Of a stretch of DNA of 64,000 bases, positions 1 through 64,000 are shown piece by piece. The position numbers and the translations under genes are program-made. The stretch's first letter is position 1. Each line of letters begins with the position of its first letter. The notes beneath the pieces were generated by a model that was not told the origin of the DNA, made no database searches, and worked only from the letters and a program-made list of their open reading frames with translations. The DNA is from an uncultured Acidobacteriota bacterium (GTDB lineage Bacteria > Acidobacteriota > Thermoanaerobaculia > Multivoradales > UBA5704), in assembly GCA_963770895.1 (NCBI GenBank), contig CAVYRF010000001.1:896001-960000 (forward strand), given 5' to 3'.

Positions 1-22665
<22,665 letters not shown>

Positions 22666-25038: not shown

Positions 25039-25117
25039 GATCGTGCTCAGCTCATCGTACGTACCATCTGCGCGAAGGTTTCTTCGGCCCCGAGCCGGGT
25101 GTTTCAGCCCGGCGCCG

Positions 25118-26595: not shown

Positions 26596-26636
26596 AACCG
26601 TATGGTGATATAGAGGCGACGCCTTGTCAAGGCGCC
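26573..26636 (-). promoter_or_regulatory. Putative ArsR operator and promoter
   Basis: GTTCCATAACC direct repeat (26573-26583, 26589-26599), imperfect palindrome ATAACC-GTAT-GGTGAT (26594-26609), and a minus-strand TTGACA (26630-26625) inside the palindrome CGCCTTG-T-CAAGGCG. AT-rich island in GC-rich DNA. Confidence 0.55.
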
Positions 26637-26658
26637 GCCGGCAAACGCGGCGAACGCC

Positions 26659-28743: not shown

Positions 28744-29344
28744 GATGCCCCCATGAGCGACCCCGCCGTCATCCGGCAATGTCGCCGAAGCTCAAGTGCT
28801 GCCCTTTGTCCAGGTCTACGCACCGCCGCCGGCCGGTGTCCAAAGCGGCCAGGCCGGGTTGGCGTGAGCCCTCAGCACGCCAGGTAGACCCAAGCGCGGC
28901 GGAATCTCCAGCCAGGGCCGTCCGCAAAGCCAGCTCCCAAGCCAGCTCCGTGACATGCAATCAAGGTTGTGTCTGCAATCACTGCACACTTCGAATCCGA
29001 TCTCAGCGGGGGCACTGGCACTCGGTTCGATAGGGCTGTCCCTCTGGTGTAGCGGCAAGCTGAGCTAGCTGCCAGAGCTTGAAGATGGGAGCCTTTTGCG
29101 CAACCTTGTAGCTGGCGGCACTCATGGTTGCAGCCGGCAGTGCCTCTTCGAGCTGCTGCCACCGACATCCCGGGTCCGCTTGATCTGCGAGCCAGGACAC
29201 CGGAGGTCTCACGCTCGGGGATGAACCTGCGTGAGCCTCCCGTGTTGGCGGGCGCCAGGCGAGGCGCGCGAGCTGGTCCAGCACCGCCGGCGACGCCGCG
29301 AACGCCGCCTACCGGCGGTCTGCTGTTAAGCGCGGATCATTCTG

Positions 29345-29509
29345 TTATTCGCAGATCACTTTGCAGCTGCCGCAGATCGTCACCGTACAGTGCACCGAAC
29401 ATGGATCGCCAGTGATGAGCGCGCCGCCGGCGCGACCCAGATCGGTCCTCTCAAGACCTGCCAGCGTCTCCCGATGGAGCGTCAGTCGCGTGGTCGAGGA
29501 CTTTTTCAT
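29345..29509 (-). CDS. 54-aa RiPP precursor-like peptide (lanthipeptide-type): MKKSSTTRLTLHRETLAGLERTDLGRAGG-ALITGDPCSVHCTVTICGSCKVICE
   Basis: ATG 29509 with strong RBS AAGGAGAGGAG. Leader has MKK...LxLHRETL and a GG; the core has 5 Cys and 5 Ser/Thr. Confidence 0.78.
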   Translation of the reverse strand: MKKSSTTRLTLHRETLAGLERTDLGRAGGALITGDPCSVHCTVTICGSCKVICE

Positions 29510-29544
29510 CGCTCTCCTCTCCTTTTCGAAGGTGCTGCATCCAG

Positions 29545-29572
29545 ATCCTATCTCAGCTCGCCGACGCCGCAA
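29545..29572 (-). promoter_or_regulatory. Possible sigma70-type promoter for the precursor peptide gene
   Basis: TTGCGG (29572-29567), 16 nt, TAGGAT (29550-29545), about 35 nt upstream of the ATG. Confidence 0.3.
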
Positions 29573-29647
29573 CGTTTCGTGCTCACGCGCAAAGCCCTTC
29601 TGTCAGAGGTCCTGAAGCCAGAAGTTTTGGCCTGGACACGTCGCTAT

Positions 29648-29920
29648 TCAAGCGCGGATGGAGACGGCTTGCGCGATGGTCGTGATCGGGCCGCTGGCGA
29701 TCTGGGCCGTGTCCAGGATATCGATCTCTCCGAAGTTGGCGGTGTGGGGCAGCGCGCCGGCGAGGGTCTGGCAGGGCAGCGCGCGGGTGCACGGATTGGT
29801 GTCGCTGCCCAGCCCTGACAGATAGGTGCGGGACGAAACCTGGGCCCAGGCCTGCTGGGTGCAAAGGGCGAGGCAGGAGAGACCGATCAATAGGGCGCGT
29901 TTCATGGACAGAGTGCTCAT
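29648..29920 (-). pseudogene. Truncated N-terminal fragment of a secreted parallel beta-helix (pectin-lyase-like) protein
   Basis: Signal peptide ending AWA-Q, then RTYLSGLGSDTNPCTRALPCQTLAGAL...GEIDILD, matching the RTWVSGVGDDANPCSRTAPCKT N-cap of much longer beta-helix proteins; stops after 90 aa. RBS AGGAGG upstream. Confidence 0.6.
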
Positions 29921-30111
29921 CGCGGACCTCCTGGCGCAAGAGGCGCCGAAGGTAGGGCAGAGGTGAATTCCTCGAATAGACCCACGGGCAAGGCTGGGAT
30001 TCCCAATCGGACTGTGAGATCATCATCGGACAACAATCTGCTGAGTCATGTTGCTGGATAGTGAAGCGGGGCCGTTTGCAAAACAGCAACGACTGAACAC
30101 CGGAGGCGTCC

Positions 30112-32886: not shown

Positions 32887-32926
32887 CGCGGTCCGGCCGC
32901 CGCCCAGAACGCCGAGGAGCCTCCGG

Positions 32927-33205
32927 CTAGAAGTTGCAGCAGCCCGACTCTACGGCTACGTCGTACGCGGTCTTCTCGCCGGTGCAGGTGGTGCCGCTGC
33001 AGGTCTGGACGCACTCGCCGACCTGGGTGGTGTGCTGGGCGTTGCTGTAATAGAAGGTCCTGTAGGTGGGGTAGCCGTCGGCGCAGATGAAGGCGGCGGC
33101 GGGGCGCGGCGGCACCAGGAAGACGGTCGCAATGAAGGCGGCGAGGGTGAAGGCGAGAAGGGCGACGCGGCGGCCGAGGGGGGTGGCGGTACTGGGGTGT
33201 GGCAT
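32927..33205 (-). CDS. Small secreted Cys-rich protein (92 aa), DUF6289-like
   Basis: ATG 33205 with RBS AGGAGG; signal peptide ending PAAA; mature FICADGYPTYRTFYYSNAQHTTQVGECVQTCSGTTCTGEKTAY...GCCNF with the YYS..H.T.VG motif and 6 Cys. Confidence 0.78.
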   Translation of the reverse strand: MPHPSTATPLGRRVALLAFTLAAFIATVFLVPPRPAAAFICADGYPTYRTFYYSNAQHTTQVGECVQTCSGTTCTGEKTAYDVAVESGCCNF

Positions 33206-33366
33206 GGCGGTCCTCCTGTCGTTTCTTCGACGTTGTGGATACAGAAATAGGTGTGTGTGGAGGACGGCCGGACGAGACGAGGGGCGCGGCCATGCTCCGC
33301 GGCCACGTGCGCGGCCGAGCGAGCCGCGCCCGCCTCCCCTGTCCCTCGCGCCACAGCATGTGTAGC

Positions 33367-34704
33367 ATGCAAGCGATGACACCGCTCGAACCCGTCTCGC
33401 AGGAAGAGCGCATCCGCTCCTTGGACACGCTGCGCGGGTTTGCGCTGCTGGGCATCCTGCCGGCGAACGTCCTCATCTTCGGCATGTACTTCGCGGCGGG
33501 CAACGACCCCATGGTGGCAGGCGGCGCCACTGGCCTGAACCTCGCGAGCTGGGCGGTGTTCCGCATCCTGGTCGAGGGCAGGATGCGCTGTCTGTTCTCA
33601 ATGGTCTTCGGGGCCGGCGTGATCCTGCTGACCGCGCGGGCCGAGGAGCGAGCCGGGGCCACCGCTGCCGCCGACATCTACTACCGGCGGAATCTCTGGC
33701 TGCTGGTGTTCGGCCTGGCGCACGCCTTCCTGCTGTTCTGGGGCGACATCCTCTATCCGTACGCCCTGTGCGCGCTGATCCTCTTCCCCTTCCGCAAGCT
33801 TTCGGCGAAAAAGCTCCTGATCATCGGCGGCTTGTTCATCGCGTTCAAGGCCGGGTGGGCCACCGTCGATGCATTCCGGCAGACCGAGCGGCGGAGCCTG
33901 GCTGCCGCGGCCGATGCTGCCGAGAAGGTGGGTCACCTGCCGACCGACGAGCAGGCCGCGGCGAGGCGGCAACTGGAAGCGCAGCGCCTGCAGCGCAAGC
34001 CATCGCCGGAGGCGCTGGCGAAGGACGCCGCGAAGTGGCGCGGCAATCCGCTGGAAGTGATCGGCGAACGGGCGAAATTCCTTGCGACATGGCACGGGCT
34101 GCCGTTCTACGACCCGGCGAATTGTGACATATGGAGCATGATGTTCATCGGCATGGGTCTCTTCAAACTGGGAGTCCTCAGTGCGGCGATGTCTTATCGT
34201 TTCTATATCTCGATCGCCGTCGCCGGAACCCTGATCGGAATCCCGCTGAGCTCGTGGATGGCATGGCTGGCGCTGAGGAGCCATTTCGACCGTGTGACCG
34301 TGCTGTCGACCCAGGTGGCCACCGACCTTGAGCGGCTGCCGGTCGCCCTTGCGTACATGGCGGTGCTGATGATCCTGTGCAAGGCAGGCAGGCTGCGGTG
34401 GCTGACCGGCCTCCTGGCCGCCATCGGGCAGACGGCCCTCAGCAACTACATCCTGCAATCGGTCATCTGCTCGCTCGTCTTCACCGGCTACGGCCTCGGC
34501 TTGTACGGACGGCTCGAACGGTATCAGCTCTACTTTGTAGTAGCAGGATGCTGGGCCCTGTCGCTGGCCGCAAGCCCCGTCTGGCTGCGGCACCACCGCT
34601 TCGGGCCGCTCGAATGGTGCTGGCGCTCGCTCACCTATTGGAAGCGGCAGCCGATGCGCGTGACCCGCCCACCGGCGGCCTCCCAGATCGCCGGCAGCTG
34701 CTGA
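33367..34704 (+). CDS. DUF418 (YeiB-like) integral membrane protein
   Basis: ERIRSLDTLRGFALLGIL, LFSMVFGAG, WGDILYPYA, GQTALSNYILQS, FGPLEWCWRSLTY. Confidence 0.92.
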   Translation: MQAMTPLEPVSQEERIRSLDTLRGFALLGILPANVLIFGMYFAAGNDPMVAGGATGLNLASWAVFRILVEGRMRCLFSMVFGAGVILLTARAEERAGATAAADIYYRRNLWLLVFGLAHAFLLFWGDILYPYALCALILFPFRKLSAKKLLIIGGLFIAFKAGWATVDAFRQTERRSLAAAADAAEKVGHLPTDEQAAARRQLEAQRLQRKPSPEALAKDAAKWRGNPLEVIGERAKFLATWHGLPFYDPANCDIWSMMFIGMGLFKLGVLSAAMSYRFYISIAVAGTLIGIPLSSWMAWLALRSHFDRVTVLSTQVATDLERLPVALAYMAVLMILCKAGRLRWLTGLLAAIGQTALSNYILQSVICSLVFTGYGLGLYGRLERYQLYFVVAGCWALSLAASPVWLRHHRFGPLEWCWRSLTYWKRQPMRVTRPPAASQIAGSC

Positions 34705-34716
34705 TCCTAAGCTCTG

Positions 34717-35797
34717 GTGCGCTTCGCCTGGGTGCTGGGGCTGGTTGTCGCCGCGGTGCCGGCGCGGGCGGAGCCACCGGCCGTGGCGGCGACGTTGCCG
34801 GCCAGCGGTTTCGACGATGCGGCGGCGCGGCGCCTCTTCGAATACGACGCCGCGGCGCCGCTCGACGTCCGGGAGGAGAAGACCGAAACGCGCGGTGCTG
34901 CCGAGGTGGTGGACCTCTCCTACGCCAGCCCGTTGGGACGCGTGCCGGCCTTCCTGGTGCGTCCGCGGCGCGGCGGCGCGGCGACCGCGGCAGTGGGGAA
35001 GGCCGCGGCGACCGCGCCACCCGGCGGCGGTGTTCGTGCACCTCGGCCAGGGGAACCGCGGCACTTTCCTCGACGAGGCGGTCGACCTCGGCGGGCGCGG
35101 CCTGGTGTCGTTGCTGATCGGCGCGCCGTTCACCCGCCCCGAGCACCCCAAGGCCAAGATGCCCTTCGACGGCGAGCAGGACCGCCGGGACTTCGTGCAG
35201 GCCGCGATCGACGTGCGGCGCGGTTTCGATCTCCTCGCCGCCCGCGACGACGTCGACGCGACGCACCTGGGCTACGTCGGTCACAGTTTCGGCGCGACGA
35301 TCGGCGGCCCGCTGCTCGCCACCGAACCGCGCGTGCAAGCCTGGGTGCTGATGGCGGGCTTTGCCGCCCAGACGCGCGAGCTGTCGAGCGGCGACGGCCT
35401 CGCCGGCCTGGCCTTCCGCACGCTGCTGGCCGCGGACGACCAGCAGCGTTACCTCGCCACGCTGGCGCCGATCGACAGCGTTCGCTTCCTGCCGCACGCG
35501 CCGCCGGCGCCAATCCTCTTCCAGTTCGCCCGCCGCGACGAATACGTCGCGCCCTGGGATGCGGCACTCTGGCTGCAGGCCCGTCGCGGTCCAAACGAGG
35601 TAGCGTGGTACGACACGGGCCACACTTTCGACGCCGACGCGCGCCGCGACCGCGATGCCTGGCTGCTGCGCCAGCACAACCCGGCCCGCGTCCGGGGCAG
35701 CCGGCCGGGAGATCCCAGGCCCGTCAAATGTCTTCGGGGCTCGCTGCGACTGCCTCGCTGTCCTCTCGTCCGGCCTTACGGGTGCGCCACGATGTGA
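34717..35797 (+). pseudogene. Secreted alpha/beta hydrolase (dienelactone hydrolase/acetyl-xylan-esterase-like) split by a +1 frameshift near 34995-35015
   Basis: Frame 34717 gives a signal peptide and FEYDAAAPLDVRE...LSYASP.GRVPAFLVRP. Frame 34745 continues RHPAAVFVHLGQG...GYVGHSFGA...RDEYV...WYDTGH. Real pseudogene or sequencing indel. Confidence 0.75.
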
Positions 35798-35834
35798 AGG
35801 TAGGCTTGACAGGTTGGCTTCATATATCTATCCT
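35792..35834 (+). promoter_or_regulatory. sigma70 promoter (probably leaderless) with overlapping MarR operator
   Basis: TTGACA 35806-35811, 17 nt, TATCCT 35829-35834, ATG 7 nt later with no RBS. Inverted repeat ATGTGAAG (35792-35799) / CTTCATAT (35818-35825) flanks the -35. Confidence 0.7.
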
Positions 35835-35841
35835 TCCTGGC

Positions 35842-36294
35842 ATGACGGAAGCAGCAGATGGCCCAAACACCACGCTTGCCGTAAGGCTGGCGGAAGAGCT
35901 TCGGGGCTTCGGTGGCAAGCTGAAGCGCCACCTGCTCGCCCAGGCGGACGCTGGCGATCTGACTCCCTCGCAGACGGCTGTGCTCCTGCGCCTCGAGAAA
36001 GACGGGCCGGCTACGACCTCGACGCTTGCCAGAGCTGAGGGGATGCGACCTCAGTCGATGGGATCTGTCATCGCCGCGTTGGAGGAAGCTGGGCTGGTGG
36101 CCGGCGCGTCCGATCCGGCGGACGGGCGACAGACGATCCTGTCGTTGACCGACAGGTGCCGCTCTTTGCTCGTACAGGGGCGTGCCGCGCGGCAGGACTG
36201 GCTGGCGCGCACCATCGAAGCGCGGCTCCTGCCGCATGAGCAGGACCAGCTCGCGGCAGCGATGCCGCTGCTGCGGCGCCTGGTGGGCGAATGA
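35842..36294 (+). CDS. MarR-family transcriptional regulator
   Basis: DLTPSQTAVLLRLEKDGPATTSTLARAEGMRPQSM...LEEAGLV...DPADGRQTILSLT. Confidence 0.93.
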   Translation: MTEAADGPNTTLAVRLAEELRGFGGKLKRHLLAQADAGDLTPSQTAVLLRLEKDGPATTSTLARAEGMRPQSMGSVIAALEEAGLVAGASDPADGRQTILSLTDRCRSLLVQGRAARQDWLARTIEARLLPHEQDQLAAAMPLLRRLVGE

Positions 36295-36340
36295 GCCAAG
36301 CGCGCTGTGCCGCCAATCCATTGAAGAAAGGTCCACGCCT

Positions 36341-36685
36341 GTGACGACGCCCGACATCCACCCGCTGTATCTCCTCTCGCATTTCGCAGGCGGCGCGCTG
36401 CTGGTGAACGCGATCCCACATGTCGTCAGCGGCCTGATGGGGCGGCGATTCCCCAGCCCGTTCGCCAAGCCGCCCGGCAGGGGGCTATCGTCTGCGACGG
36501 TGAACGTGCTGTGGGGCTTTGGCAACCTCGTGGCCGCCTACTTCCTGGTGTGGCGAGTGGGTGGATTCGATCTCCGGCAGACAGGCGACATCGTGGCGCT
36601 GGCGCTCGGCATGCTCCTGCTCGGCCTCTGGCTTGCTCGGGACTTCGGCCAGCTGAACGGCGGCCGCGGGCCGCGGCCGGAGTGA
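36341..36685 (+). CDS. Small membrane protein (3 TM)
   Basis: GTG 36341 after GAAAGG; hydrophobic segments with NAIPH..SG..GR.FPSPFAKPPGRGLSS..VN.LWG; GTGA overlap with the MFS gene. Confidence 0.8.
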   Translation: MTTPDIHPLYLLSHFAGGALLVNAIPHVVSGLMGRRFPSPFAKPPGRGLSSATVNVLWGFGNLVAAYFLVWRVGGFDLRQTGDIVALALGMLLLGLWLARDFGQLNGGRGPRPE

Positions 36686-37908
36686 GCACCTCGCGGCCAG
36701 GCACCTTTCGCTCACTCAGCCACCACAACTATCGCCTCTGGGCAGGCGGTGCGCTGGTTTCCAACGTCGGCACCTGGGTGCAGGCAACGGCGCAGGACTG
36801 GCTGGTGCTGACGGTGCTCACCCACCGCAGCGCCTCGGCGGTGGGCATCGTCATGGCGCTCCAGTTCGCACCCCAGCTTCTGCTGCTTCCGTGGACGGGC
36901 TCCGCCGCGGACCATGCGGACCAGCGCAAGCTCCTCATCGCCACCCAGACAGCGATGGGCGTACTGGCGCTGATGCTGGGCGTGCTCACCGTGAGCGGAG
37001 TCGTGCGCCTATGGCACGTCTACGTCTTCGCCTTCCTGTTCGGCAGTGCGGCGGCGTTCGACGCGCCGGTGCGCCAGACCTTCGTCGGGCAACTGGTCGG
37101 CGACGAGGACCTGCACAACGCGGTCGCGCTCAATTCGATGTCGTTCAACATCGGCAACCTGATCGGTCCTGCGGTGTCAGGCCTGCTGATCGCCGCGGTC
37201 GGCACCGGCTGGGCGTTCCTCACCAATGGGGCCTCGTTCCTGGCCGTGCTGGGCTCGCTTTTGCTGCTGGACAAAGGCACGCTTCATCCTGCGGTGCGTT
37301 CCAGGCGGGCACGAGGAAGCTTCGCGCAGGGCCTGCGCTACGTTTCGCAGCGAGCCGACATCATCGCGATCCTCGTCATGCTCTTTCTGATCGGCACGTT
37401 CTGCCTGAACTTTCCCATCTTCATTTCGGTCATGGCGGCAAAGGTATTTCATACCGACGCGCGCGGCTACGGCCTGCTGTCGTCCGTCATGGCGGCAGGA
37501 ACGATCGGCGGTGCGTTCCTGAGCGCCCGGCGGGACAAGCCGCGGTTCGGCACGCTCCTGTGGTCCGCCGGCCTTCTCGGGGTCGGCTTTTCCCTTGCGG
37601 GGATCGCTCCCAGCTACTGGACCTTCGCCGCCGCTCTGATCGTCGTCGGCGTCGCGTACCTGACCTTCGTCACCGCCACCAACGGCCTCATGCAGCTTTC
37701 GACCGAGCCGGCCATGCGCGGGCGCATGATGGCGCTGCGTGTCGGCGTGGCACTGGGCGGCACGCCGGTAGGCGCACCGGCCGTCGGGTGGGTCGCGGAT
37801 CGCTTCGGGCCGCGCTGGGCGCTCGCCGTCGGCGCCGCGTCGGGCTTCGCGGCCGCGGCGGTCGCCGCCTACGCTCTCATGCGGCACGTCCAGCCGATCG
37901 AGGCGTGA
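36682..37908 (+). CDS. MFS transporter (MFS_3/H+ antiporter-like)
   Basis: FRSLSHHNYRLWAGGALVSNVGTWVQ..AQDWLV, NAVALNS..FN, MRGRMMAL; about 12 TM. Confidence 0.93.
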   Translation: MSTSRPGTFRSLSHHNYRLWAGGALVSNVGTWVQATAQDWLVLTVLTHRSASAVGIVMALQFAPQLLLLPWTGSAADHADQRKLLIATQTAMGVLALMLGVLTVSGVVRLWHVYVFAFLFGSAAAFDAPVRQTFVGQLVGDEDLHNAVALNSMSFNIGNLIGPAVSGLLIAAVGTGWAFLTNGASFLAVLGSLLLLDKGTLHPAVRSRRARGSFAQGLRYVSQRADIIAILVMLFLIGTFCLNFPIFISVMAAKVFHTDARGYGLLSSVMAAGTIGGAFLSARRDKPRFGTLLWSAGLLGVGFSLAGIAPSYWTFAAALIVVGVAYLTFVTATNGLMQLSTEPAMRGRMMALRVGVALGGTPVGAPAVGWVADRFGPRWALAVGAASGFAAAAVAAYALMRHVQPIEA

Positions 37909-37947
37909 AGTTCCAGTTTCAGCGTCGGTTCACTGAGGTCAAAAACG

Positions 37948-38583
37948 ATGCGCGGGCGGCTGACACCAGGGTTTCGCATCGAACCGGCGACAGGTAGCGA
38001 CATCCCATGGATTGCCGACCTGGAGGCCACCGTCTACTCGCAATCGGACGCCGTACCTGAGCAGACGCTGCGAGAATGGTTCTCGGTGAATCCGAGCGGC
38101 TTCTCGATCGTTCGCGATCCGCACGGCAAGGCAATCGGCCACCTGGACATCCTGCCACTCCGTCCTGTCACGCTGGACGCTTTCCGCAAAGGGGATCTCG
38201 TCGAGCGCGAGATCGGGGGCGACGCGCTCTATTCACCCGCAGAGCGGGCTTCCATAACTGCACTCTATGTGGAAAGCATTATCTTGAGGCCGGACAAGGC
38301 CATATCGAAAGGGCTCGCCGTGCTCGCCGTTCTCGACAACCTCAGCTCAATTCTCGAGCGCGTCGCGGACGCAAAGACCGTCGAGCTGATCTACGCCATC
38401 GCGGCAACTGCGGCCGGCGAAAAGCTGCTACGAAAACTGAGCTTTGAACTGGAGAACGTTGCCGAACGGCGCCGGGATTCTCATAAGCTGTTCGTCGCAA
38501 GCGTCTCAGACGTTACCTCCAGGGCAGCAGCCTTCTCAGGAACGCAGTCGTCTATCTCACATTCTGTGCACCGCGGCACGTGA
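37948..38583 (+). CDS. Hypothetical protein, possibly GNAT-like fold
   Basis: 211-aa ORF with lower GC. IEPAT..DIPWIADLE, IGHLDILPL, LYVESI and YAIAATAAGEKLLRKLSF resemble GNAT elements. Confidence 0.6.
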   Translation: MRGRLTPGFRIEPATGSDIPWIADLEATVYSQSDAVPEQTLREWFSVNPSGFSIVRDPHGKAIGHLDILPLRPVTLDAFRKGDLVEREIGGDALYSPAERASITALYVESIILRPDKAISKGLAVLAVLDNLSSILERVADAKTVELIYAIAATAAGEKLLRKLSFELENVAERRRDSHKLFVASVSDVTSRAAAFSGTQSSISHSVHRGT

Positions 38584-38941
38584 TCCAGCACGGCCTGCGG
38601 CCCGACGACCGAGTGGTGCAGAACCCCGGCCGTTCTTCAGGTTCGGGCCTGCTTCCTTCCGGCCTGCTTTCTTACTCGAGCGGCTGTTTGCCCCGACCGC
38701 GGCGCGCCTGGCGGCGCGACCGCGATCGGGCCGGGGGGCGAAGAGGGAAGGTTTTGCCGCGGCGAATGCCGCCTCATCCACTGCCGCCGAAATGGAGGGC
38801 TTTGATCCACATGCCGCGTGGGAACAGCGCCCCGGCCGGGCTGGGGCTGAATGGGTCGTCCCGGCGTCCGGCGCGAGGCGTCGCCTTCAAGCCTGTGCTC
38901 TCCGCAGCGATCGCGGAGGGGCAGGCCCCTTGGCTCCTTGG

Positions 38942-40078
38942 CTACGTCCCGCCGCGAGTGGCCTGGTCCGCGGCCCTGGCGAGGCTGTGCAGGAGTTCGA
39001 AGAACTTCGCCGATTGACCGATGAAGAGACCCATGGCAGTCAAGAATTTGAGGGCGCCCATCGCGGCTCCCGCGGTGGCGGTGGGTCGGATGATCGACAC
39101 CACCGGCAGCGTCCGGCTCAGGAAAGGACACGGCTTGGGCATGATCAGGTTGGTCTGGAAGTCCGGGCCGCCAAAGGGGGGTGAATTCAGGTCCGGGAAG
39201 ACCAGCCCATTGGTGGAGTCGGTCACCGGCGGCGCATCGCCCGCGATGTCGGACCAGGTTTGAAAGTGCATCGTTTCGGTGGGGCCGATGCTGAGCAGGA
39301 TGCGCAGCACTTCCGGGCTGGTGGCGCGCTGCGCCAGCGAAGGGTACAGACTGTTGCCGCCCTGTTCGATGGTCGGCATGTGAAACGCCGCCGTATTGAC
39401 GATCGCCTGCAGGTGGTCGTCGGGAGCGAGGTCGGCATCCGTCCTGGGTATCGCGGTGAACTGCCCTGCCGCCAAGCCGGGAATGGCTTGCGGGAACTTG
39501 AAGGTCGGATCCAGGTCGGGGTTGTTGGTGCTGCTGCGATAGCGGGTATACCAACTGGTATCCAGGGTGAGCTGCATGAGATTCGTCAGCCGCAGCTGCC
39601 CGCTGGAACCGGTCGCCGTGCTGCCCGGCAGCGTGCGGAACGGTTCCAGGTCCACCGGCTCGGCGCGCTTGCTGACCAGGTACGCGTTCAGAAAGCTCTG
39701 GTGGCTGAACTCATCATGGGTGTTGTCGTGGACGTATTGCGGAAAGTCCGAATCCAGATTCATGAACTTGGCGGTGTAGGCGGGATTGCCCGTGCCGCCG
39801 GGGACCTCGCTGTCCTGCACCCCTCCCAGCTCGTTGTACTGCACCCAGAAGTCGGTTTCGAGGATTTCCGCCGCGGCTGCGAACCTGATCAGAGCCGCAT
39901 CGCCCCGGGTGATGCCGGTGTTGCTTTCTTCTCCTTCCGGTACCTCGTCTCCGAGAGCAGGTGAGCTGCCGGCGAACAGGCCGCCGCTCATGATCGCCGC
40001 ACCTGCCGCCGTCAACCCGCCCTTCATCAAAGCGCGCCGGTCGAACCCTCTCTTCACACCATCTGGTGGGCGCCGCAT
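38942..40078 (-). CDS. Tat-exported ferritin-like domain protein
   Basis: ATG 40078 after AGAAAGG; twin-arginine DRRALMK plus hydrophobic stretch; candidate di-metal ligands AAAEILE, DEFSH, IEQGG, TETMH. Confidence 0.85.
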   Translation of the reverse strand: MRRPPDGVKRGFDRRALMKGGLTAAGAAIMSGGLFAGSSPALGDEVPEGEESNTGITRGDAALIRFAAAAEILETDFWVQYNELGGVQDSEVPGGTGNPAYTAKFMNLDSDFPQYVHDNTHDEFSHQSFLNAYLVSKRAEPVDLEPFRTLPGSTATGSSGQLRLTNLMQLTLDTSWYTRYRSSTNNPDLDPTFKFPQAIPGLAAGQFTAIPRTDADLAPDDHLQAIVNTAAFHMPTIEQGGNSLYPSLAQRATSPEVLRILLSIGPTETMHFQTWSDIAGDAPPVTDSTNGLVFPDLNSPPFGGPDFQTNLIMPKPCPFLSRTLPVVSIIRPTATAGAAMGALKFLTAMGLFIGQSAKFFELLHSLARAADQATRGGT

Positions 40079-40460
40079 AGTGCACTGCCTTTCTCGCGTG
40101 GTCGTTGAACATCGTGCCGGCTCGGCCGGCGACAACAGCGTTTCGCAAACATTGATGCAACTGGCAACGCGTGGTGGATGGCGAGTCAAGCGGAGCCTGT
40201 CTCGCGTTGAGTGGGTGCCCGCGCGACGGCAGGCGGTTCAATCCGCGGTTGCCGGCAACAATAGGTGCCGCGCTGCCTGCTAGCGCACGGGGCGGCTCAG
40301 GCCTGCGAAGGCGCGCAGGCTGCGCAGCGTCTCGCGGGTCTTGTCCTCGGCTGAGAGGCCCGCTTCCGGCGCGATCAGGGTTGGAAACTGGCGGGCGTGG
40401 GCGCCGCCTGCCCGTTACTCGGCTCCTTGGGCGCCTTGAACACCATGCGAAGGCGCCGGC

Positions 40461-41996
40461 TCAGGGCGCCTGGCCGCAATTCCTGGCGCGCGTCGCCGGG
40501 CGGGGCGATGCCCGCTGGAGCAGATAGCTGAAGTCGCCAGCGCAGCCGTTGAACCCGCTCCCGAAGGAGTGGCAGACGATGCAGGACGCGGTTTCCTTCC
40601 CCAGGCTCTGGATATAGGTCTCCATGGTGGTGTTTGAGAGCACCTCGGGCGTGGGCTGAGAGTCCTTTGGCTTCTTCGCCGTCGGGTTTGCCGGCCATTG
40701 CGTGCTCACCAGCACGTAGTTCTCCCAGACGGTGCCGTGTACCAGCGCGTGCCACTGATCGTTGATGTCCTTGGGCAACAGGTGGATACCGACCGAAATC
40801 ATTCTCGCCACCTGCACCGGCTGCGTCATCGGCGCGTGACTGTCGCGCGGATTGGCATTTTCGACACATCCCACGCAGTTCGGATCGTTCCACGAATAGT
40901 GCGCTTTGGGATCCGGCGTCGCGCCCTGTATGGGAGCGTTGTCCACCTGCTCGAAGGTGGACCAGACCCACTGGGGTCGCCCGTTCACCTTGTGCGCGAT
41001 GTGGAAACCGACGAGCCCCATCTGCCGCTGGCAGCAGGGCCCCTCGCCCGGCTGATTGCAGGTCGGATACTTACCCTGCTTGTCGGGCCGGCCCGTGGCG
41101 AGATCGACCTTCGAGTCGACGATCGTCGCCAGCTCGGTGAAAAATCGGCTCGCATCGTCCTTGGCGCCGAGTACCTTCCAGGCCGCCTTGATCTCGATGG
41201 CGCCGAGCGAACCGCCGTCGGTGCCGGTGGGGAAATTGAAGGGAGCCGCGAGGGCAGCCTGGGTGTTGCCGTTGTAGAAACCGTTCCCCACGATATATTC
41301 GAAGCTGTCCTGGTCGATGCGGATCTCGTAGCGCGCCAGCTGGCCCGACTGGTCGGTGAGCCAGACGTTCGGCACCGCTTGAACGGATTCGTCAGCCACG
41401 TTGCCGACCTTCGAGGTTGCCCGCAGCGTCGGTTCGCCGCCCGGGAAGCCCTTCTGGCAGGCCGCGGGAGCCGCCGTGCTGTCGTCCTTCCAGCAGCTTT
41501 CGAGGCAGCCCGGCACCTTCGGATCGCAATGGCAAGGATTCTGCCCCTGGTCGGAGAAGATCTGGTGCGGCTCCTTGAAGGTCATCCAGACCACGCGGTC
41601 ATCGGCACGCCGTTCACCGAAATGCTTCGTTTTGTCCGGTTCGCCGTTCTGCGCGCCAGCCGGCCAGTTGAGCGCCACCAGGCTCTGCCACGAGAAGCAG
41701 TCGAAGTTCTGCTGGATCGAGGCGGTGCCAAACGCGTGCACCTCGTGGGGAGGGCTGGAGTCGAGCGTGGCGCCCAGGCACGGCCCGGGCGCGGTGCTCA
41801 CTGCGGCCTCGGTGCTCGCGGCGTCCCCAATCCTGGTGGTAGGCGCGGCGACCTTCGCCGGGAGCGGCGCGGGGGGCAACCTCTGCGGCACAGGCGGCGG
41901 CGAGCCCCAGTGGAAGGCGGCGAGGCCGCCGGAGAGCAGGGACGCCGCGAGACTTGCCGGCGCCCACCAGAACCGACGCGTTGGTTGAGGGCTCAT
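40461..41996 (-). CDS. Exported Cys-rich protein with a single C-terminal CxxCH (putative c-type cytochrome)
   Basis: RBS GAAGGAGG; N-terminal hydrophobic anchor; blocks WQSLVALNWPA, IEIKAAWK, LVGFHIAHK, WVWSTFEQVDN, LSNTTMETY, SCIVCH. Confidence 0.8.
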   Translation of the reverse strand: MSPQPTRRFWWAPASLAASLLSGGLAAFHWGSPPPVPQRLPPAPLPAKVAAPTTRIGDAASTEAAVSTAPGPCLGATLDSSPPHEVHAFGTASIQQNFDCFSWQSLVALNWPAGAQNGEPDKTKHFGERRADDRVVWMTFKEPHQIFSDQGQNPCHCDPKVPGCLESCWKDDSTAAPAACQKGFPGGEPTLRATSKVGNVADESVQAVPNVWLTDQSGQLARYEIRIDQDSFEYIVGNGFYNGNTQAALAAPFNFPTGTDGGSLGAIEIKAAWKVLGAKDDASRFFTELATIVDSKVDLATGRPDKQGKYPTCNQPGEGPCCQRQMGLVGFHIAHKVNGRPQWVWSTFEQVDNAPIQGATPDPKAHYSWNDPNCVGCVENANPRDSHAPMTQPVQVARMISVGIHLLPKDINDQWHALVHGTVWENYVLVSTQWPANPTAKKPKDSQPTPEVLSNTTMETYIQSLGKETASCIVCHSFGSGFNGCAGDFSYLLQRASPRPATRARNCGQAP

Positions 41997-42079
41997 ATCG
42001 CCTCCTTCAAAGGGCGCTCTCGAAGTGATGATTCATGGCCGCTCCGTGCAACCGGCCATCGTCCGATCGTGCAGGTCGT

Positions 42080-43075
42080 TCAGGATTCGGGGGAGCCGGC
42101 GTCCATCCAAGCCTTGAAGGTCGCGATCATCTCCTGTGTCCACGGCTGCGAAGGTGGCTTGGGCATGCGGTGGGACGAAACCTCGTCGTAGATGCGCTGG
42201 CCGTTGGCCTTGACACTCTGGTAGCTCCCCAGGTCGAGCGGCTTGCCGGACCCGCCGGGATCTCGCACCATGTGGCCCACGTCGACGGCGTTGAACAGAC
42301 CCTGGATGTAGTTCTGCCAGGTCGGCGGACGTGCGTCGGCCGATGGCGGCGGAGGTGGGGGCGGCGGTGCGACGGCCGGTGGGGACGGCGCGGCGGTCTG
42401 CGGATCGCGGGCGGCGCGGGCCGCCTTGATCGCGCTGTCGGGCCCTTGCTTCGCCTTGTCGGGCAGCTTCCCGGCGAGATAGCCGGCATGGCTCACGCCG
42501 AGGAGCCAGAGCAGATTTGGCACGACGTCGAGGTTGGGAAAGCTCGGCGACCCTTCCTTTGCCCGGTCGACAAGCAGGCAGACATAGACACCCGCGATCA
42601 CCAGGGTGAAGATGAGATTTTGGAATTTGGTCACGTCCACCACCTGATCGATCAGCGGCCCCTCCTCCTGGAGCACCACCTGCGCCAGCCGCGGGGGAAT
42701 GGTGAGCCCGCCTCCTGGATTGACGGCCGCGGCCGGCAGGATCCCTTTCGTCTGCACGGCGGCGCCCCGCACATCCTTGCCGCTCTTGATCGCGCCCGAG
42801 GTGACCGCCGATCCGGCGCTGATGCCCATCAGCACGAGCAGCGTCTGGGGAATCTGCAAAGCCGTGGCAAGCGGCGGGCGGGAGTAGAGCAGCAGGCCGA
42901 CCAGAGTGGAGAGCACGAGCAGGGTCCACAGGACGATCTGCAGATGGTTCAGACTGTACCGGCCCCGCTCGTCGATCAGGATGCCGGACCAACCCCTGCC
43001 GGCCGCCCGGCCGGCGAGGCCGGCGAGGATCAGGAGGACGAGAAGCGCAACGAGCCACAGATAGACGAAAGACAT
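42080..43075 (-). CDS. Membrane protein with an internally duplicated TM hairpin, Pro-rich linker and small C-terminal helical domain
   Basis: RBS AGAAGGAGG. SLNHLQIVLWT...IPQTLLVLMGISAG and DVTKFQNLIFT...VPNLLWLLGVSHAG repeats; tail DVGHM...LDLGSYQSVKAN...IY...RMP...W....IATFKAWMDAG. Confidence 0.8.
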   Translation of the reverse strand: MSFVYLWLVALLVLLILAGLAGRAAGRGWSGILIDERGRYSLNHLQIVLWTLLVLSTLVGLLLYSRPPLATALQIPQTLLVLMGISAGSAVTSGAIKSGKDVRGAAVQTKGILPAAAVNPGGGLTIPPRLAQVVLQEEGPLIDQVVDVTKFQNLIFTLVIAGVYVCLLVDRAKEGSPSFPNLDVVPNLLWLLGVSHAGYLAGKLPDKAKQGPDSAIKAARAARDPQTAAPSPPAVAPPPPPPPPSADARPPTWQNYIQGLFNAVDVGHMVRDPGGSGKPLDLGSYQSVKANGQRIYDEVSSHRMPKPPSQPWTQEMIATFKAWMDAGSPES

Positions 43076-43269: not shown

Positions 43270-44727
43270 ATGGCGGCTCGCGGGGCGAGGGGCGGCGTGG
43301 GGCGCCGGGTGACGGGCGGCGACCAGGCCGTGGGTGTGGAGCGGCGGGCGTTCAAGCTGGTGGCGGTGGCCGGTGAGGATGCCGCGGCGCTCGACGCGGC
43401 GGCGCGGGAGGCGGCGGCGCGGCTCCGCGCGTCGCCCGCCGCGGAGCTCGGCAGGCTGGCGGCGGCCCTGCGGCGGGACGGGCCGGCGCCCAGGCACCGG
43501 CGCATGGTGGTGTGCCGGGAGCCAGGCGCGGCGATCGCGGCGTTGACGGGTGCCGTCGGCCCTGGGGCGGCGCGGGTGTGGAGCGGGGTGGCGGGGCGGC
43601 GGGCGCCGGCGGTGTCGTTCCTGTTTTCGGGGGTCGGCGATCAGTATCCGGGGATGGCGCACGGACTCTATCGGCAGGAGCCGGTGTTCCGCGCCGCCGT
43701 GGATCGGTGCGCCGAGATCCTCGTCCCCTGGCTGGGGCGCGACGTGCGGGAGGTGCTGTTTGCGCCGGCGCCGGAGGCGGCCGCACCGCCGGGGGAAGCG
43801 GGCGCAGCCGCGGGGCACGGCGGCCCGCAGCGGCGGATGGATCTCCGCCAGATGCTGGGACGGAGCGGGGCGGCCACATGGGCGCCGGCCAACCCGCTCG
43901 ACCAGACCCTTTTCGTGCACCCGGCGCTGTTCACGGTGGAGTATGCGCTGGCGCAGCTGTGGATGTCCTGGGGCGTGGTGCCGCGGTCGCTCGCCGGCTA
44001 CAGCGTCGGCGAGTACGTGGCGGCGTGCCTGGCAGGAGTGTTCGAGCTCGCCCAGGCCTTGCGGCTGGTGGCGGTGCGGGCGCGCATCCTGGACGAGCTG
44101 CCGGCGGGCGCGATGCTGAGCATCTTCCTTCCGGAGGCGGACTGCGCGGCGCTCCTGGGAGAGGGCTTGTGGCTCGCGGCGGTGAACGGACCGAGCCTTT
44201 GCGTGGTGGCGGGGGAGAGCGCGGCGGTCGAGGCGCTGGCGTCGCGGCTCCAGGAGCGGCGCGTGCCGTGCCGCCGGTTGGCCGCCGGACACGCGTTCCA
44301 TTCGCCGCTGCTGGCGCCGGCGGTGGCGCCGCTGGTGCGCGAGGCGGCGGCGCTCGCGCTGCGGCCGCCGGCGGTGCCATTGCTGTCGAACGTCAGCGGC
44401 GGATGGATCGGCGCGGCGGAGGCGACGGACCCCGAGTATTGGGCGCGCCACATGTGCCGGCCGGTGCGCTTCGCGGCGGCGCTCGCCACGCTCGGTACGG
44501 GGGCGGCGCGGGCGCTGGTCGAGATCGGGCCGGGGAGCACGTTGTGCAGCATGGCTCTCCAGGGCGCCATGCCGGTGGCGCCGGTGGTGGCGGTGCCGTC
44601 GCTGCCGCACGCGCAGGACGCGGAGCCCGACCTCGAGGTGATGGTGTCGGCGCTCGGCAGGCTCTGGCTCGCGGGGGTCGAGCCCGACTGGCGGGCGTTC
44701 GACGGCGAGCACCTGGGCACCCGCTGA
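43270..44727 (+). CDS. Free-standing PKS acyltransferase (malonyl-CoA type) retaining cis-AT linker regions; start uncertain
   Basis: FLFSGVGDQYPGM, active site GYSVG (43996-44010), VAVRARIL, GAM, AAVNGP, HAFHS (44290), YWARH..RPVRF, VEIGPG, LGRLWLAGVEPDW. No KS or ACP. Confidence 0.9.
   Translation: MAARGARGGVGRRVTGGDQAVGVERRAFKLVAVAGEDAAALDAAAREAAARLRASPAAELGRLAAALRRDGPAPRHRRMVVCREPGAAIAALTGAVGPGAARVWSGVAGRRAPAVSFLFSGVGDQYPGMAHGLYRQEPVFRAAVDRCAEILVPWLGRDVREVLFAPAPEAAAPPGEAGAAAGHGGPQRRMDLRQMLGRSGAATWAPANPLDQTLFVHPALFTVEYALAQLWMSWGVVPRSLAGYSVGEYVAACLAGVFELAQALRLVAVRARILDELPAGAMLSIFLPEADCAALLGEGLWLAAVNGPSLCVVAGESAAVEALASRLQERRVPCRRLAAGHAFHSPLLAPAVAPLVREAAALALRPPAVPLLSNVSGGWIGAAEATDPEYWARHMCRPVRFAAALATLGTGAARALVEIGPGSTLCSMALQGAMPVAPVVAVPSLPHAQDAEPDLEVMVSALGRLWLAGVEPDWRAFDGEHLGTR

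Positions 44728-46862: not shown

Positions 46863-46866
<4 letters not shown>
44908..46866 (+). CDS. Stand-alone NRPS starter module (A-T)
   Basis: QTSGSTGVPK, FDAWLRD, NLYGPSETT, YRTGD, GGHSLL; no C domain; acidic/helical C-terminal docking tail; GTGA overlap with the next gene. Code DARHLALMTK. Confidence 0.93.
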
Positions 46867-60180
<13,314 letters not shown>

Positions 60181-60184
<4 letters not shown>

Positions 60185-63100
60185 CCGGCGGCGCGGCAGG
60201 CGGCGGCGAGGCGATCGCGGTCGTCGGCATGAGCGGGCGCTTCCCGGGTGCCGCGAGCGTCGCCGAGTTGTGGCGCAACCTGCGCGCCGGGGTTTCCGGC
60301 GTCCGTCCCTTGACCGACCAGGAGCTGGCGGCGGCTGGGGTCGGCGCGGCGGAGCGCGACGATCCGCGCTACGTCCGCATGGCCGGGGTGTTGAGCGGCG
60401 CCGATCTGTTCGACGCCGGGCTCTTCGGCCTGACGCCGCGCGAGGCGGAGGTGATGGACCCGCAGCTGCGGGTGTTCCTCGAATGCGCCTGGGAGGCGCT
60501 GGAGGACGCCGGGCACGACCCCGAGCGCTTCCCCGGCTGGATCGGCGTCTATGCCGGTGCGGCGCTCGGCAAGTACCTGTGGCTCAACGTCGGGCGCCAC
60601 CCGGAAGCGCTGGCCGCGGTCGGCACCTTCCAGGCGATGATCACCAACGACAAGGACTTCCTCGCCACCCAGGTCAGCTATCGCCTGAACCTGCGCGGCC
60701 CGAGCCTCGGCGTGCAGAGCGCCTGCTCGACGTCGCTCGTGGCGGTGCACCTCGCCTGCCAGGCGCTGCTCTGCTTCGAGTGCGACATGGCGCTCGCCGG
60801 CGGCGTGTCGATCAGCCTGCCCGAGCAGGGCTATCTCTACCAGGACGACGGCCTGGCATCGCCCGATGGCGTCTGCCGGCCTTTCGATGCGCGGGCGGCG
60901 GGGACCATCCGCAGCAACGGCGCCGGGGTGGTGGCGCTGCGGCGGCTGGGCGACGCGCTGGCCGATGGCGACCGCGTGCTGGCCCTGGTGCGCGGCTCGG
61001 CGATCAACAACGACGGCGCGGCGAAGGTCGGCTTCACCGCCCCTTCGGTCGGCGGCCAGGCGGAGGTGATCGCCGTGGCGCAGGCGGTGGCGGGGGTGAG
61101 CGCGGAGAGCATCGGCTACGTCGAGGCGCACGGCACCGGCACGCCGCTCGGCGATCCGATCGAGGTGGCGGCGCTGACGCAGGCGTTCGGCGCGGCGGCG
61201 GCGCGCCGCGCCAGGTGCGCCCTGGGATCGATCAAGAGCAACCTCGGTCATCTCGACGCGGCGGCCGGGGTGGCCGGGTTCATCAAGACGGTCCTGGCGC
61301 TGCACCATGGAGAGCTGCCGCCGAGCCTCCACTTCGCGACCCCCAACCCGCAGATCGATTTCGCGGCCAGCCCGTTCTACGTCAACGCCGAGCTGCGCCC
61401 CTGGCCGCCGGGGGAGCCGGGGGAGACGCCGCGCCGCGCCGGCGTCAGCGCCTTCGGCATCGGCGGCACCAACGCCCACGTGGTGTTGGAAGAGGCGCCG
61501 CCCGCGGCGGCGGTTCCGGCCCCGGCGGCGGCGGAGGCAGCGCCTGAGATCCTGTTGCTCTCGGCGCAGAGCGAGACGGCGCTGCGCACCGCGGCGGCGC
61601 GGTTGGCGGCGCACGACAGTGAAGACCTGCCGGCGATCGCCTGCACGCTGCAGCTCGGACGCCGCGCCCTCGCCTGGCGCTGGTCGGCGGTGGTGCGAAG
61701 CACCGAAGAGGCGCGGCGGCGGTTGCATCAGCTGGCGCGCGGCGAGGCGGCGGCGGTGGCGGTGGCGCGCGAGCTGCCGGCGGTGGCGCTGGTGTTTCCG
61801 GGACCGGCGGCGGTGTTGGCGGGAGCGGGAGCGGGGGCGGGCGCAGGAGCGGACGCGGACGCTGGGAGAGCGGGGATGGCCGGGCTGGCGGCGGAGCTGT
61901 ACCGCACGCGGGCGGTGTTTCGCGCCGTGGTCGAGGAGGGCTGCGCGCTGCTCGCGCCAGAGCTGGGCGACGCGGTGCGGCGCGAGATCGCCGCCGGTCC
62001 GGCATCCGGCGACGTCCGGGTTACCGGTCCTGCGTCCGCCGTCGCGGCCGAAGCCGCCGCCCCGGCACTGTTCCTGTCGCAGCTGGCGCTGGCGCGGCTG
62101 TGGCTGAGCTGGGGCGTCGAGCCGGCGGCGCTCTACGGCTACGACGGTGGCGAGGAGGTGGCGGCGTGCGTGGCCGAGGTGCTGCCGCTCGCGGCGGCGC
62201 TCGAGCTCGCGGTGCTGCGCGGCCGGCTCGCGGCCGGCGGCGAGCGAGCGGCGATCCTGGCGGCGGTGCGCGGGCTGGTCGCCGTGGCGCGCCCGCAGGC
62301 GCCGCGCATCCGCATGGTGTCGAGCGTCACCGGCGACTGGGCGGGCTGGGAGGACCTGGCGGACCTGGCGTACTGGGTGGAGCTGCTGGCGGCGCCCGCC
62401 GACACCGCCGCCGGCCTGGCGCTGCTGCGCGACGAGCCGGCGCGGGTGCTGGTCGAAATCGGCCCGCGCGGCGGAGCCGTGGCGCAGCTTCTGGCGACGG
62501 CGGGCGAGCTCTGGCGAGCCGGCGTGGCGCTGCGCTGGGAGGCGGTGCACGAGCGGCGGCGTCCGCGCCGCGCGGCGCTGCCGACCTACCCCTTCGAACG
62601 CCAGCGCTACTACCTCGAACCCCAGGTGCCCGCCGGCGGGGCGGCGATGCCGCCGGCTTTGGGCAGTGGGACGGAACAGGTGGGGAGCGGCGGCGGCCGC
62701 CGGCCGCTCGCAGAGTGGTTCCACCTCGCGTCGTGGAAGCGGTCTCTGCCGCCTCCGCCCGGCGAGGAGCCGGCGGCGACGGAGCGCCGGTGTCTCGTGC
62801 TGCTGGACGACCGCGGCGTCGGCGCGGCGCTCGCCGCCGCCCTGCGGCGCGACGGCTGGCAGGTGACGGAGGCGGCGGCGGGCGCGGCCTGGCAGCAGGG
62901 GAGCGATGGGCGCTACGTGCTGCGGCCGGGGGACGAGGAAGACTTCCGGCGCCTGTGGCGCGCGCTCGCCGGCGACGTCGGTATCGGCGGCGGCGGTCTG
63001 CCGCGGCGGGTGGTCCACCTGTGGAACCTCGGCGGCGACAGCCCCGAACCGGGGCTCGACGCGGCGCTCGACCGCTCCTTCTACAGTCTGCTGCACCTGG

Positions 63101-64000
63101 CCGGGCGCTTCGCGGCGCACCCGGGGGCGGCGGTCGAGCTGACGGTGGTCTCCGACCGCCTGCACGCGGTGGACGGCGGCGACCGGCCGCACCCTGAACG
63201 GGCGGCGCTCCTGGGCACCTGCCGCGTGCTGCCGCAGGAGCTGGAGCACGTGAGCTGCCGCAGCCTCGATCTCGACGTGGCGGGTGGCGTCGAGCAGGCG
63301 GCGGCGCTCTGCCTGGCGGAGCTCGCCGCGCCGGCGGCCGAACCGGTCGTGGCGTGGCGCGGGCCGTATCGCTGGCTGCCGAGCTGGGAAGCGGTGCCGC
63401 TCGCCGACGCGGCGCCCGGCGCCGGCCTGCGGCCGGGGGGCGTCTACGTGGTGACCGGCGGCCTGGGCGGCGTCGGCCTGGAAGTGGCGGAGCTGCTCGC
63501 CGCCGGCGGCGCCCGGCTGGTGCTCGTCGGCCGCACGCCGTTGCCGCCGCGCGAGACCTGGGACGCCTGGCTCCCAGCCCATCCCGCCGGCGACGCGACG
63601 AGCGCCCGCATCCGCCGCCTGCAGGCGATCGAGGCGCGGGGCACCGCGCTCCTCCTCGCCGCCGGCGACGTCACCGACCGCGGGCAGATGGCGGCGGTGC
63701 GCGACGCGGCGCGGCAGCGCTTCGGCGCCGTGCACGGTGTTTTCCATGCCGCCGGGATCGCCGGCGGCGGGCTTCTGGCGACACGCACGCGCGAGCAGGC
63801 GGCGGCGGTCCTGGCGCCCAAGGTCGCCGGCACGCGGGTGGTGGCCGAAGTGTTCGGCGCCGTTGCCGGGGAGGCCGGGGAGGCCGGAGCCCTCGACCTC
63901 CTGGTCCTCTTCTCGTCGCTCAACGCGCTCACCGGCGGCATCGGGCAGGCCGACTACGCCGCGGCCAACGCCTTCCAGGACGCGTTTGCGGCGGCAGCCG
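60181..64000 (+). CDS. Type I PKS module KS-AT(inactive)-KR, 3'-truncated by the window; absent from the ORF track
   Basis: GTG 60181 overlaps the NRPS stop. AIAVVGMSGRFPGA, hybrid-KS signatures NDKD and VQSACSTS (Cys 60724), HGTGT, KSNLGH, FGIGGTNAH. AT with GYDGG at 62137; LPTYPFERQRY; KR TGGLGGVG, HAAG, FSS and QADYAAAN. Confidence 0.95.

Follow-up and report, generated by a model that had tools for sequence, protein, structure and literature searches.

A free-standing acyltransferase of the cis-AT lineage heads a hybrid NRPS-PKS cluster and is predicted to serve a module with a dead acyltransferase

Here, we describe a gene for a free-standing acyltransferase (AT) in a 64,000-nucleotide stretch of DNA from an uncultured Acidobacteriota bacterium (GenBank assembly GCA_963770895.1, contig CAVYRF010000001.1, positions 896,001 to 960,000), which we refer to as the window. 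The gene heads an operon of nonribosomal peptide synthetase (NRPS) genes that runs into a polyketide synthase (PKS), PKS1, whose own AT survives as a degenerate remnant. The free AT is predicted to be a complete, folded and catalytically competent acyltransferase, and sequence and model comparisons support its membership in the lineage of ATs that are embedded in PKS modules (cis-ATs), apart from the FabD transacylase and from ZmaF of the zwittermicin cluster. The feature is real and conserved. From its residues and its neighborhood we infer the enzyme's substrate, its acceptor and its trans-acting role, and we consider predicted loading of the PKS1 acyl carrier protein (ACP) in trans to be its most likely role, a reading that we favor with modest confidence.

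A predicted complete acyltransferase encoded as a separate gene

The free AT is a discrete gene inside an assembly-line cluster (Table 1). Frame analysis by third-position GC (GC3) and the open reading frame (ORF) listing put its stop at 44727 on the + strand and give 485 aa from an ATG at 43270; another ATG, at 43108, also lies in the open frame, third-position GC climbs only past about 43200, and homologous proteins start within about 25 residues of the linker. A database protein identical to the free AT (P0003) is likewise 485 aa long. The ORF is closed and is not fused behind a ketosynthase (KS) in one polypeptide. Because the neighboring upstream gene (42080-43075, - strand) is divergent, no KS precedes the free AT, and because the genes at 23-43 kb are in addition unrelated, we take the free AT to be the cluster's first gene. 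From 43270 onward, third-position GC traces one co-oriented + strand operon in a window of ~75% G+C, whose only two AT-like regions are the free AT and the remnant in PKS1. A promoter and terminator scan gave nothing useful.

Along the protein, LVAVAGEDAAAL (residues 30-41) and HRRMVVC (76-82) are followed by GVGDQ (121-125), GYSVGEY (243-249), Arg270 and GHAFHS (340-345), and then by LGRLWLAGVEPDW (462-474) within the post-AT linker. The first-pass annotation of this DNA had described a stand-alone AT with a KS-AT linker, GYSVG, the Arg, HAFH and a post-AT linker, and each of these was found in its place. With hmmalign, Ser245, Arg270 and His344 align with Ser92, Arg117 and His201 of E. coli FabD, and all three are invariant in ten of ten family members. 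Phe343, too, is invariant together with His344 in the ten members of the A2 family alignment, where the motif reads HAFH in six and HPFH in four; HAFH is an established sign of malonyl-CoA specificity. The unusual GVGD and GYS signatures are common to the free AT and its embedded relatives, which are presumably active. A conserved DLRxMLGR insert was considered as a hallmark of free ATs and rejected, since embedded relatives carry it too.

The regions flanking the catalytic core also resemble those of embedded enzymes. In phmmer alignments, the N-terminal linker of the SpnD AT construct matches residues 31-167, and the KS-AT linker of ClbI residues 28-166. Acyl_transf_1 is the one Pfam family of the window protein itself; the linker families are reported in its homologues P0004-P0012, with PF22621 in all nine and PF22336 in eight. 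At the other end, the protein's C-terminus falls just short of the point where embedded ATs continue into a YPFxRxRYW motif. An AlphaFold (AF2) model from an alignment of ten family members (pLDDT 74.7, pTM 0.77) places a beta-alpha-alpha-beta-alpha-beta unit (residues 29-107) ahead of the AT domain, and Foldseek ranks only cis-AT or KS-AT structures at the top, with 447-471 columns aligned. The SpnD-AT and ZmaA-AT crystal constructs (433 and 444 residues) have the same boundaries as the free AT, consisting of linker, AT and post-AT linker.

The free AT groups with embedded cis-ATs

Among sequences in the Protein Data Bank (PDB), the best matches of the free AT are the SpnD AT (240 bits, 4.6e-70), ClbI (226), the ZmaA AT (224) and the CurL KS-AT (223). 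PksD scores 101 bits, E. coli FabD 77, and the FabD-type transacylases among the matches listed 74-90, while the NCBIfam FabD model gives 117 bits, under its cut-off of 260.9. Our tree, from a quick IQ-TREE search, has 84 rows drawn from 73 of the 74 loci that a genome scan returned, seven family proteins, two ATs of the second PKS type described below (PKS2), ZmaA, ZmaF (identified from its position in a B. thuringiensis plasmid cluster) and FabD; L034, which has an in-frame stop, and L070 and L073, which are too short, were left out. A branch of length 2.47 with 99% support separates FabD and ZmaF, which alone represent the non-cis side, from the 82 other rows, the free AT among them. Together with other stand-alone ATs that are 57-67% identical to it, the free AT forms a clade of 12 with 100% support, and the remaining free ATs form actinomycete clades placed among embedded ATs. 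The first-pass annotation had read the enzyme as a cis-AT and not FabD-like and had proposed an AT phylogeny as a check; the PDB ranking, the NCBIfam scores, Foldseek and the tree agree with that reading, the free AT grouping with embedded ATs and FabD and ZmaF falling outside the 99% branch.

The loci in this tree were fetched by two peptide patterns, GVGD and GYSVGEY, and the sample is therefore biased to the free AT's own lineage. The unconstrained tree requires several changes between the free and the embedded state, and a single clade uniting the 38 free ATs is not rejected by an approximately unbiased (AU) test (p-AU 0.346, log-likelihood difference 11.45), so that several independent origins of free cis-type ATs are not established.

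PKS1 retains the remnant of an AT from a different source

The second AT-like region of the window lies in PKS1, where Pfam finds a KS, a KS C-terminal extension, the KS-AT linker families and a ketoreductase (KR). The Acyl_transf_1 match is partial (residues 567-684, profile positions 12-120 of 319, 44.5 bits). In this remnant, GYDGGEE stands instead of GHSxGE (62137-62157), so that the serine is lost and the Arg is retained (VLRGRL); a GA-rich low-complexity stretch, AGAGAGAGAGADADAG (61786-61866), takes the place of the GQGSQ loop; and the small subdomain is deleted together with HAFH (0/58 columns filled), with ~75 residues missing. Judged by these residues, the AT of PKS1 is catalytically dead. 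In the KR, the motifs for NADPH binding and catalysis are retained, and Pfam, alignments and motifs together bear out the earlier description of a co-oriented PKS module with KS and KR intact and AT destroyed. A model of the remnant (pLDDT 70.5) is still similar to cis-AT structures, at lower TM-scores (0.47-0.58), which fits a scaffold role. In the PDB, the KS of PKS1 matches the trans-AT entries 7zma, 4wky and 4oqj and the cis-type ClbI, ClbC and ClbK, all peptidyl-accepting KSs. Both the AT remnant and a post-AT linker are still present in PKS1.

When the dead-AT region was searched against proteins, it matched P0124, the full-length protein identical to PKS1, with 1506 aa and the order KS-AT°-KR-ACP, in which AT° denotes the dead AT. 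Another protein, P0127 (2126 aa, KS-AT-KR-ACP-TE, where TE is a thioesterase), has an AT with GHSVG, Arg and HAFH intact. Because PKS1 and P0127 are 83% identical in the KS, with long identical runs, and only 50% identical in the KR-ACP part, we take them to be paralogues and probably neighbors, and refer to P0127 as PKS2; the contrast in identity (60181-61500) suggests gene conversion between paralogous genes. The remnant is 38-39% identical to the ATs of P0127 and of the PKS2-like P0126 (202-285 bits) and 29% identical to the free AT (108 bits). Since these scores favor P0127 and P0126 over the free AT, and since PKS1 still has linkers of its own, we take the remnant to be a decayed PKS2-type AT. 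The free AT and the PKS2 AT are about 40% identical, and the free AT appears to be a separate lineage that was not cut from PKS1.

The first-pass annotation had called the AT "excised" from the PKS, a view that does not survive the finding that PKS1 keeps a KS-AT linker, an AT remnant nearer to P0127 and P0126, and its post-AT linker motif LPTYPFERQRYYL. A recent fission of the free AT from PKS1 is rejected as well, the pairwise scores and the orthologues speaking otherwise. The annotation had also proposed checking further PKS modules for active ATs, and here the outcome is divided: the AT of PKS1 is dead and that of P0127 live. P0126 carries, inside its KS-AT linker (residues about 560-680), a long Pro/His-rich tandem repeat of HQAVPPE-like units.

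The arrangement is conserved in related bacteria

The homologue search found 340 proteins at E ≤ 0.001 among 8000 scored candidates; our searches were word-filtered. Nine homologues, P0004-P0012 (449-509 aa), are 57-63% identical to the free AT by BLASTP and 57-65% in the A2 alignment, share its start and stop positions, and all have Pfam linker families. In the genome scan, four loci from metagenome-assembled genomes of Acidobacteriota or Thermoanaerobaculia (L001, L002, L005 and L062) encode an AT 58-64% identical to that of the window. The order AT, A-T, then C-A-T-C-A-T (A, adenylation; T, thiolation; C, condensation) is kept in L001, L002 and L005, and on the 4.2-kb contig of L062 the AT is followed by an A-T gene. 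None of the four has a KS upstream of the free AT, and in the first three the upstream neighbors differ and are mutually unrelated. The free-AT ORFs of L001, L002 and L005 are bounded by stop codons, with 570, 489 and 520 codons from stop to stop. P0125, an orthologue of PKS1 with 50% identity over the AT region, carries GHGAGE and shares the deletion seen in PKS1; it and the free AT P0006 are apparently on one contig (both 25,403 bases).

The first-pass annotation had judged the arrangement "recent". That judgment fails in view of the 12-protein clade, the position at the head of the operon in four other Acidobacteriota genomes, and P0125 with its shared deletion; by these comparisons the arrangement appears to be conserved in related soil bacteria and old. 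A wider partner search (115 proteins) gave no pairing beyond the contigs of 25,403, 720,570 and 2,243,495 bases. In a profile search of 1.84 billion representatives, 149 of the best 150 matches were multi-domain proteins of at least 2155 aa and the only free AT was P0007 (468 aa); the scores sum several ATs per protein, so this search is of no use for counting the free-AT family. A tblastn search of plasmids found embedded ATs or distant matches only, apart from ZmaF material.

Among the free-AT loci of the lineage, a KS lies within 10 kb in 22 of 31, and at 21 of these 22 loci no AT stands behind it; among embedded-AT loci, a KS without an AT behind it occurs in 3 of 38. The free-AT counts are not independent, because many of these loci are one Streptomyces cluster type. 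In an annotated actinomycete example, the partner is a KS-linker-(300 aa)-ACP protein with no AT match.

A recurrent actinomycete cluster is represented by L077 (NZ_CP108735.1 365296-373670) and about 17 similar Streptomyces loci (L024-L074). It consists of a KS-linker-ACP protein without an AT, an alpha/beta hydrolase, a 3-hydroxyacyl-CoA dehydrogenase (HADH), an ACP and an acyl-CoA dehydrogenase (ACAD), together with a 399-aa protein to which Pfam assigns no family and a free cis-type AT; NRPS genes come next. OzmC was considered as a relative of the actinomycete free ATs and rejected, being listed in a review table as a 325-aa DpsC-like protein.

The remainder of the operon and the window

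Between the free AT and PKS1 lie the NRPS genes of the operon (Table 1). At 49973-50039 the frame shifts between the A10 motif of module 2 (frame 46863-50165) and its T domain (in the ORF ending at 60184); the equivalent stretch of L002 is a single unbroken ORF, and the change is either an assembly frameshift or a genuine split between A and T. Relative to the window, L001 (16348-17612), L002 (11646-12907) and L005 (16462-17833) carry ~1.2 kb extra between the A and T domains of module 2, with no clear Pfam domain in the insert.

At the other end of the window, a stop-free ORF of 7555 codons (1-22665, + strand) continues past the 5' end and encodes NRPS modules. It includes an internal thioesterase domain (residues 3365-3604, about nt 10093-10812), after which a new A domain begins in frame at residue 3651; two assembly lines may have been fused here, or a stop codon lost. 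The region between the two NRPS clusters (23000-43000) has a lower G+C content (64-73%) and holds unrelated genes, among them by Pfam a hydrolase, BNR/sortilin, beta-propeller, DUF418 and MFS proteins and others; the ORFs at 34717-35797, 37948-38583, 40461-41996 and 42080-43075 have no Pfam family.

Table 1. Features of the free-AT operon, in window coordinates
Feature	Position	Strand	Basis
Stand-alone AT gene, 485 aa: linker domain, AT, post-AT linker; heads the operon	43270..44727	+	ORF, GC3, Pfam, homologues, model
Free AT: KS-AT linker domain, residues 28-107	43351..43590	+	phmmer to SpnD/ClbI linkers, predicted fold
Free AT: catalytic core, residues about 113-445, with GVGDQ, GYSVGEY, Arg270, GHAFHS	43606..44604	+	Pfam, alignments
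Free AT: post-AT linker, residues 455-476, with LGRLWLAGVEPDW	44632..44697	+	alignments, motif positions
A-T didomain NRPS loading protein, 689 aa	44797..46866	+	Pfam, NCBIfam, motifs
C-A part of NRPS module 2	46863..50165	+	Pfam, frame analysis; frame breaks past A10 motif, ~49973
Module 2 T domain (different frame), then three C-A-T modules	50039..60184	+	Pfam, frame analysis, motifs
PKS1, KS-AT°-KR-(ACP), passes the window end	60181..64000	+	Pfam; identical P0124 (1506 aa) would end at 64701
PKS1: KS, Cys-His-His intact (SACSTS, EAHGTGT, SNLGHL)	60208..61335	+	Pfam, motifs
PKS1: own KS-AT linker domain, residues 457-521	61549..61743	+	PF22621, PF22336, model
PKS1: dead AT remnant	61786..62475	+	partial Pfam match, alignments, model
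PKS1: own post-AT linker motif LPTYPFERQRYYL	62578..62616	+	motif positions
PKS1: KR (GGLGGVG; Ser and Tyr present), cut at the window end	63439..64000	+	Pfam, motifs

Discussion

We propose that the operon encodes an assembly line in which an A-T loading protein would be followed by four C-A-T modules, PKS1 (KS-AT°-KR-ACP) and probably PKS2 (KS-AT-KR-ACP-TE). The free AT would load malonyl from malonyl-CoA onto Ser245 and then hand it over in trans to the carrier of PKS1, whose own AT would survive only as a structural scaffold between KS and KR. In origin, the free AT would be an old copy of a cis-AT other than that of PKS1, long since established as a gene of its own, and the PKS1 remnant would be a decayed paralogue of the PKS2-type AT.

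Several observations weigh against this proposal. Only two genomes document the pairing of a free AT with a dead-AT PKS. For the contig of 720,570 bases with the free AT P0004, only the live-AT PKS P0126 was recovered, the word-filtered searches finding no dead-AT orthologue of PKS1 there, and these searches matched no PKS partner for P0005, for P0007-P0012 or for the L005 contig. P0127, with its live AT, is apparently on PKS1's own contig (both 2,243,495 bases), and the PKS1 ACP could instead receive its unit from this AT or from cellular FabD. Within the free AT itself, the positions matching FabD Gln11 and Gln63 are Val and His. Finally, in a Streptomyces plasmid cluster from a related actinomycete clade, the free AT lies beside an HADH/ACP/ACAD cassette, and given these neighbors the lineage may move ACP-linked extender units despite its HAFH-like motif.

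Some of these observations would be accommodated if the live cis-AT of PKS2, or else FabD, loaded the PKS1 ACP and the free AT brought a different or ACP-linked extender or starter unit to one of the carriers. Such a division of labor would make use of the intact P0127 AT on what is apparently the contig of PKS1, would suit a free AT such as P0004 that apparently shares its contig with a live-AT PKS only, and would agree with the Streptomyces plasmid cluster, where the cassette and its free AT stand next to a KS-linker-ACP protein. The structures that best match the free AT also include the ZmaA AT, which uses hydroxymalonyl-ACP. On the other side, there is no cassette for an ACP-linked (aminomalonyl) extender within the window or within 5-10 kb upstream of the AT in L001, L002 and L005; the specificity motif is HAFH or HPFH throughout the family, with both Phe343 and His344 invariant; and the PKS1 carrier is the sole carrier in view without a working loader. 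We regard this alternative as rather unlikely. An improbable further explanation is that PKS1 is a non-elongating or skipped module and the free AT a redundant or decaying leftover. Dead ATs are indeed common in a query-enriched set that includes fragments, where 25 of 411 AT regions lack the serine, the histidine or the small subdomain, but the KS of PKS1 still has its Cys and its two His motifs, and the motifs for NADPH binding and catalysis remain in the KR. The free AT, for its part, keeps its catalytic residues in ten of ten homologues at 57-65% identity and its position in four other genomes, a pattern that fits purifying selection.

That the free AT is a discrete AT-fold protein within an assembly-line cluster could also bring to mind the proofreading acyl hydrolases of trans-AT systems, which are not loaders. 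PksD, the acyl-hydrolase homologue in the PDB, nevertheless scores only 101 bits, against 223-240 for cis-ATs, the free AT keeps the carboxylate-binding Arg270 together with HAFH, and it nests among embedded cis-ATs in the tree, so that a hydrolase role seems very improbable. Least credible of all is the idea that the free-AT gene was left behind by the breakage of a PKS gene or results from faulty assembly. The assembly does show at least one apparent frameshift nearby (49973-50039), but the free-AT ORF is closed on both sides with a divergent gene upstream, its nine homologues of 449-509 aa start and stop in the same places, and the corresponding ORFs of L001, L002 and L005 are closed by stop codons. 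Loading of PKS1 in trans could itself be carried one step further, to a model that we find speculative and doubtful: free linker-ATs may be one half of a naturally split PKS module that docks non-covalently on PKS1 through the linkers, with the decayed AT as docking scaffold. The pair would then be a stable cis-to-trans-AT intermediate, of which the actinomycete KS-linker-ACP systems would represent a later stage.

The closest known parallel to the window is the colibactin system. According to the accessible part of one account, colibactin biosynthesis uses a free-standing AT, ClbG, which moves aminomalonyl from an ACP, alongside ClbC, ClbK and ClbO with non-functional ATs and ClbI with a working cis-AT (PMC8402462). 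Like the window, colibactin is a hybrid NRPS-PKS system that combines non-functional cis-type ATs with a free AT, ClbG being likened to ours by description and not by sequence. Its live cis-AT module may have a counterpart in P0127, apparently on the same contig beyond the window end. The free AT has ClbI among its best matches in both sequence and fold, and the PKS1 KS has ClbI, ClbC and ClbK among its best matches. Unlike ClbG, as portrayed in that account, the free AT has HAFH and is accompanied by no aminomalonyl cassette in the window or upstream of the AT in L001, L002 and L005. ZmaF of zwittermicin is, like the free AT, a discrete AT gene in a hybrid cluster that also holds a cis-AT, ZmaA; a review passage gives its specificity as aminomalonyl-ACP. 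Unlike the free AT, ZmaF is annotated as an ACP S-malonyltransferase, fills 0/73 linker columns and joins FabD outside the 99% branch.

In canonical trans-AT PKSs, as presented in the parts of two papers available to us, a separately encoded AT is expected to load modules without a working AT (PMC6164871, PMC11907408). Those of disorazole, bacillaene and kirromycin are FabD-like, whereas the AT described here is of cis lineage and has a linker domain; in addition, an AT remnant and a post-AT linker persist in its putative partner, and the change is confined to a single module. That discrete ATs can serve modules deficient in AT is well established, and in the sources accessible to us those described are FabD-like or distant from embedded ATs. 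The available text of one of these papers also reports laboratory complementation of a DEBS AT6-null by a discrete AT (PMC6164871); such engineered constructs are man-made, whereas the gene of the free AT occurs in nature and is conserved. Displacement of the AT has also been put forward for type I PKSs of algae, with an intermediate described, in the part of the article at hand, as missing or short-lived (Shelest et al. 2015, PMC4661987). The algal model concerns eukaryotes; the state conserved here is bacterial and combines a free cis-type AT with a dead remnant and a live cis-AT. A literature search that covered few subscription journals found no natural free cis-lineage AT with retained linkers and no description of this Acidobacteriota cluster.

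Because colibactin and algal AT displacement, so far as those partly available sources describe them, precede the case made here, current views stand and are not overturned: colibactin already shows the same logic. What sets this case apart is a free AT of embedded lineage that keeps the linker domain and the post-AT linker, which laboratory constructs also need, in a clade of at least 12 free ATs with a dead-AT scaffold partner in two genomes and a live-AT sister module apparently on the same contig. If loading in trans proves true, this system would be a natural, apparently stable example of an integrated AT replaced by a separate one, and its free cis-type AT could be used as it stands in the engineering of AT-null modules.

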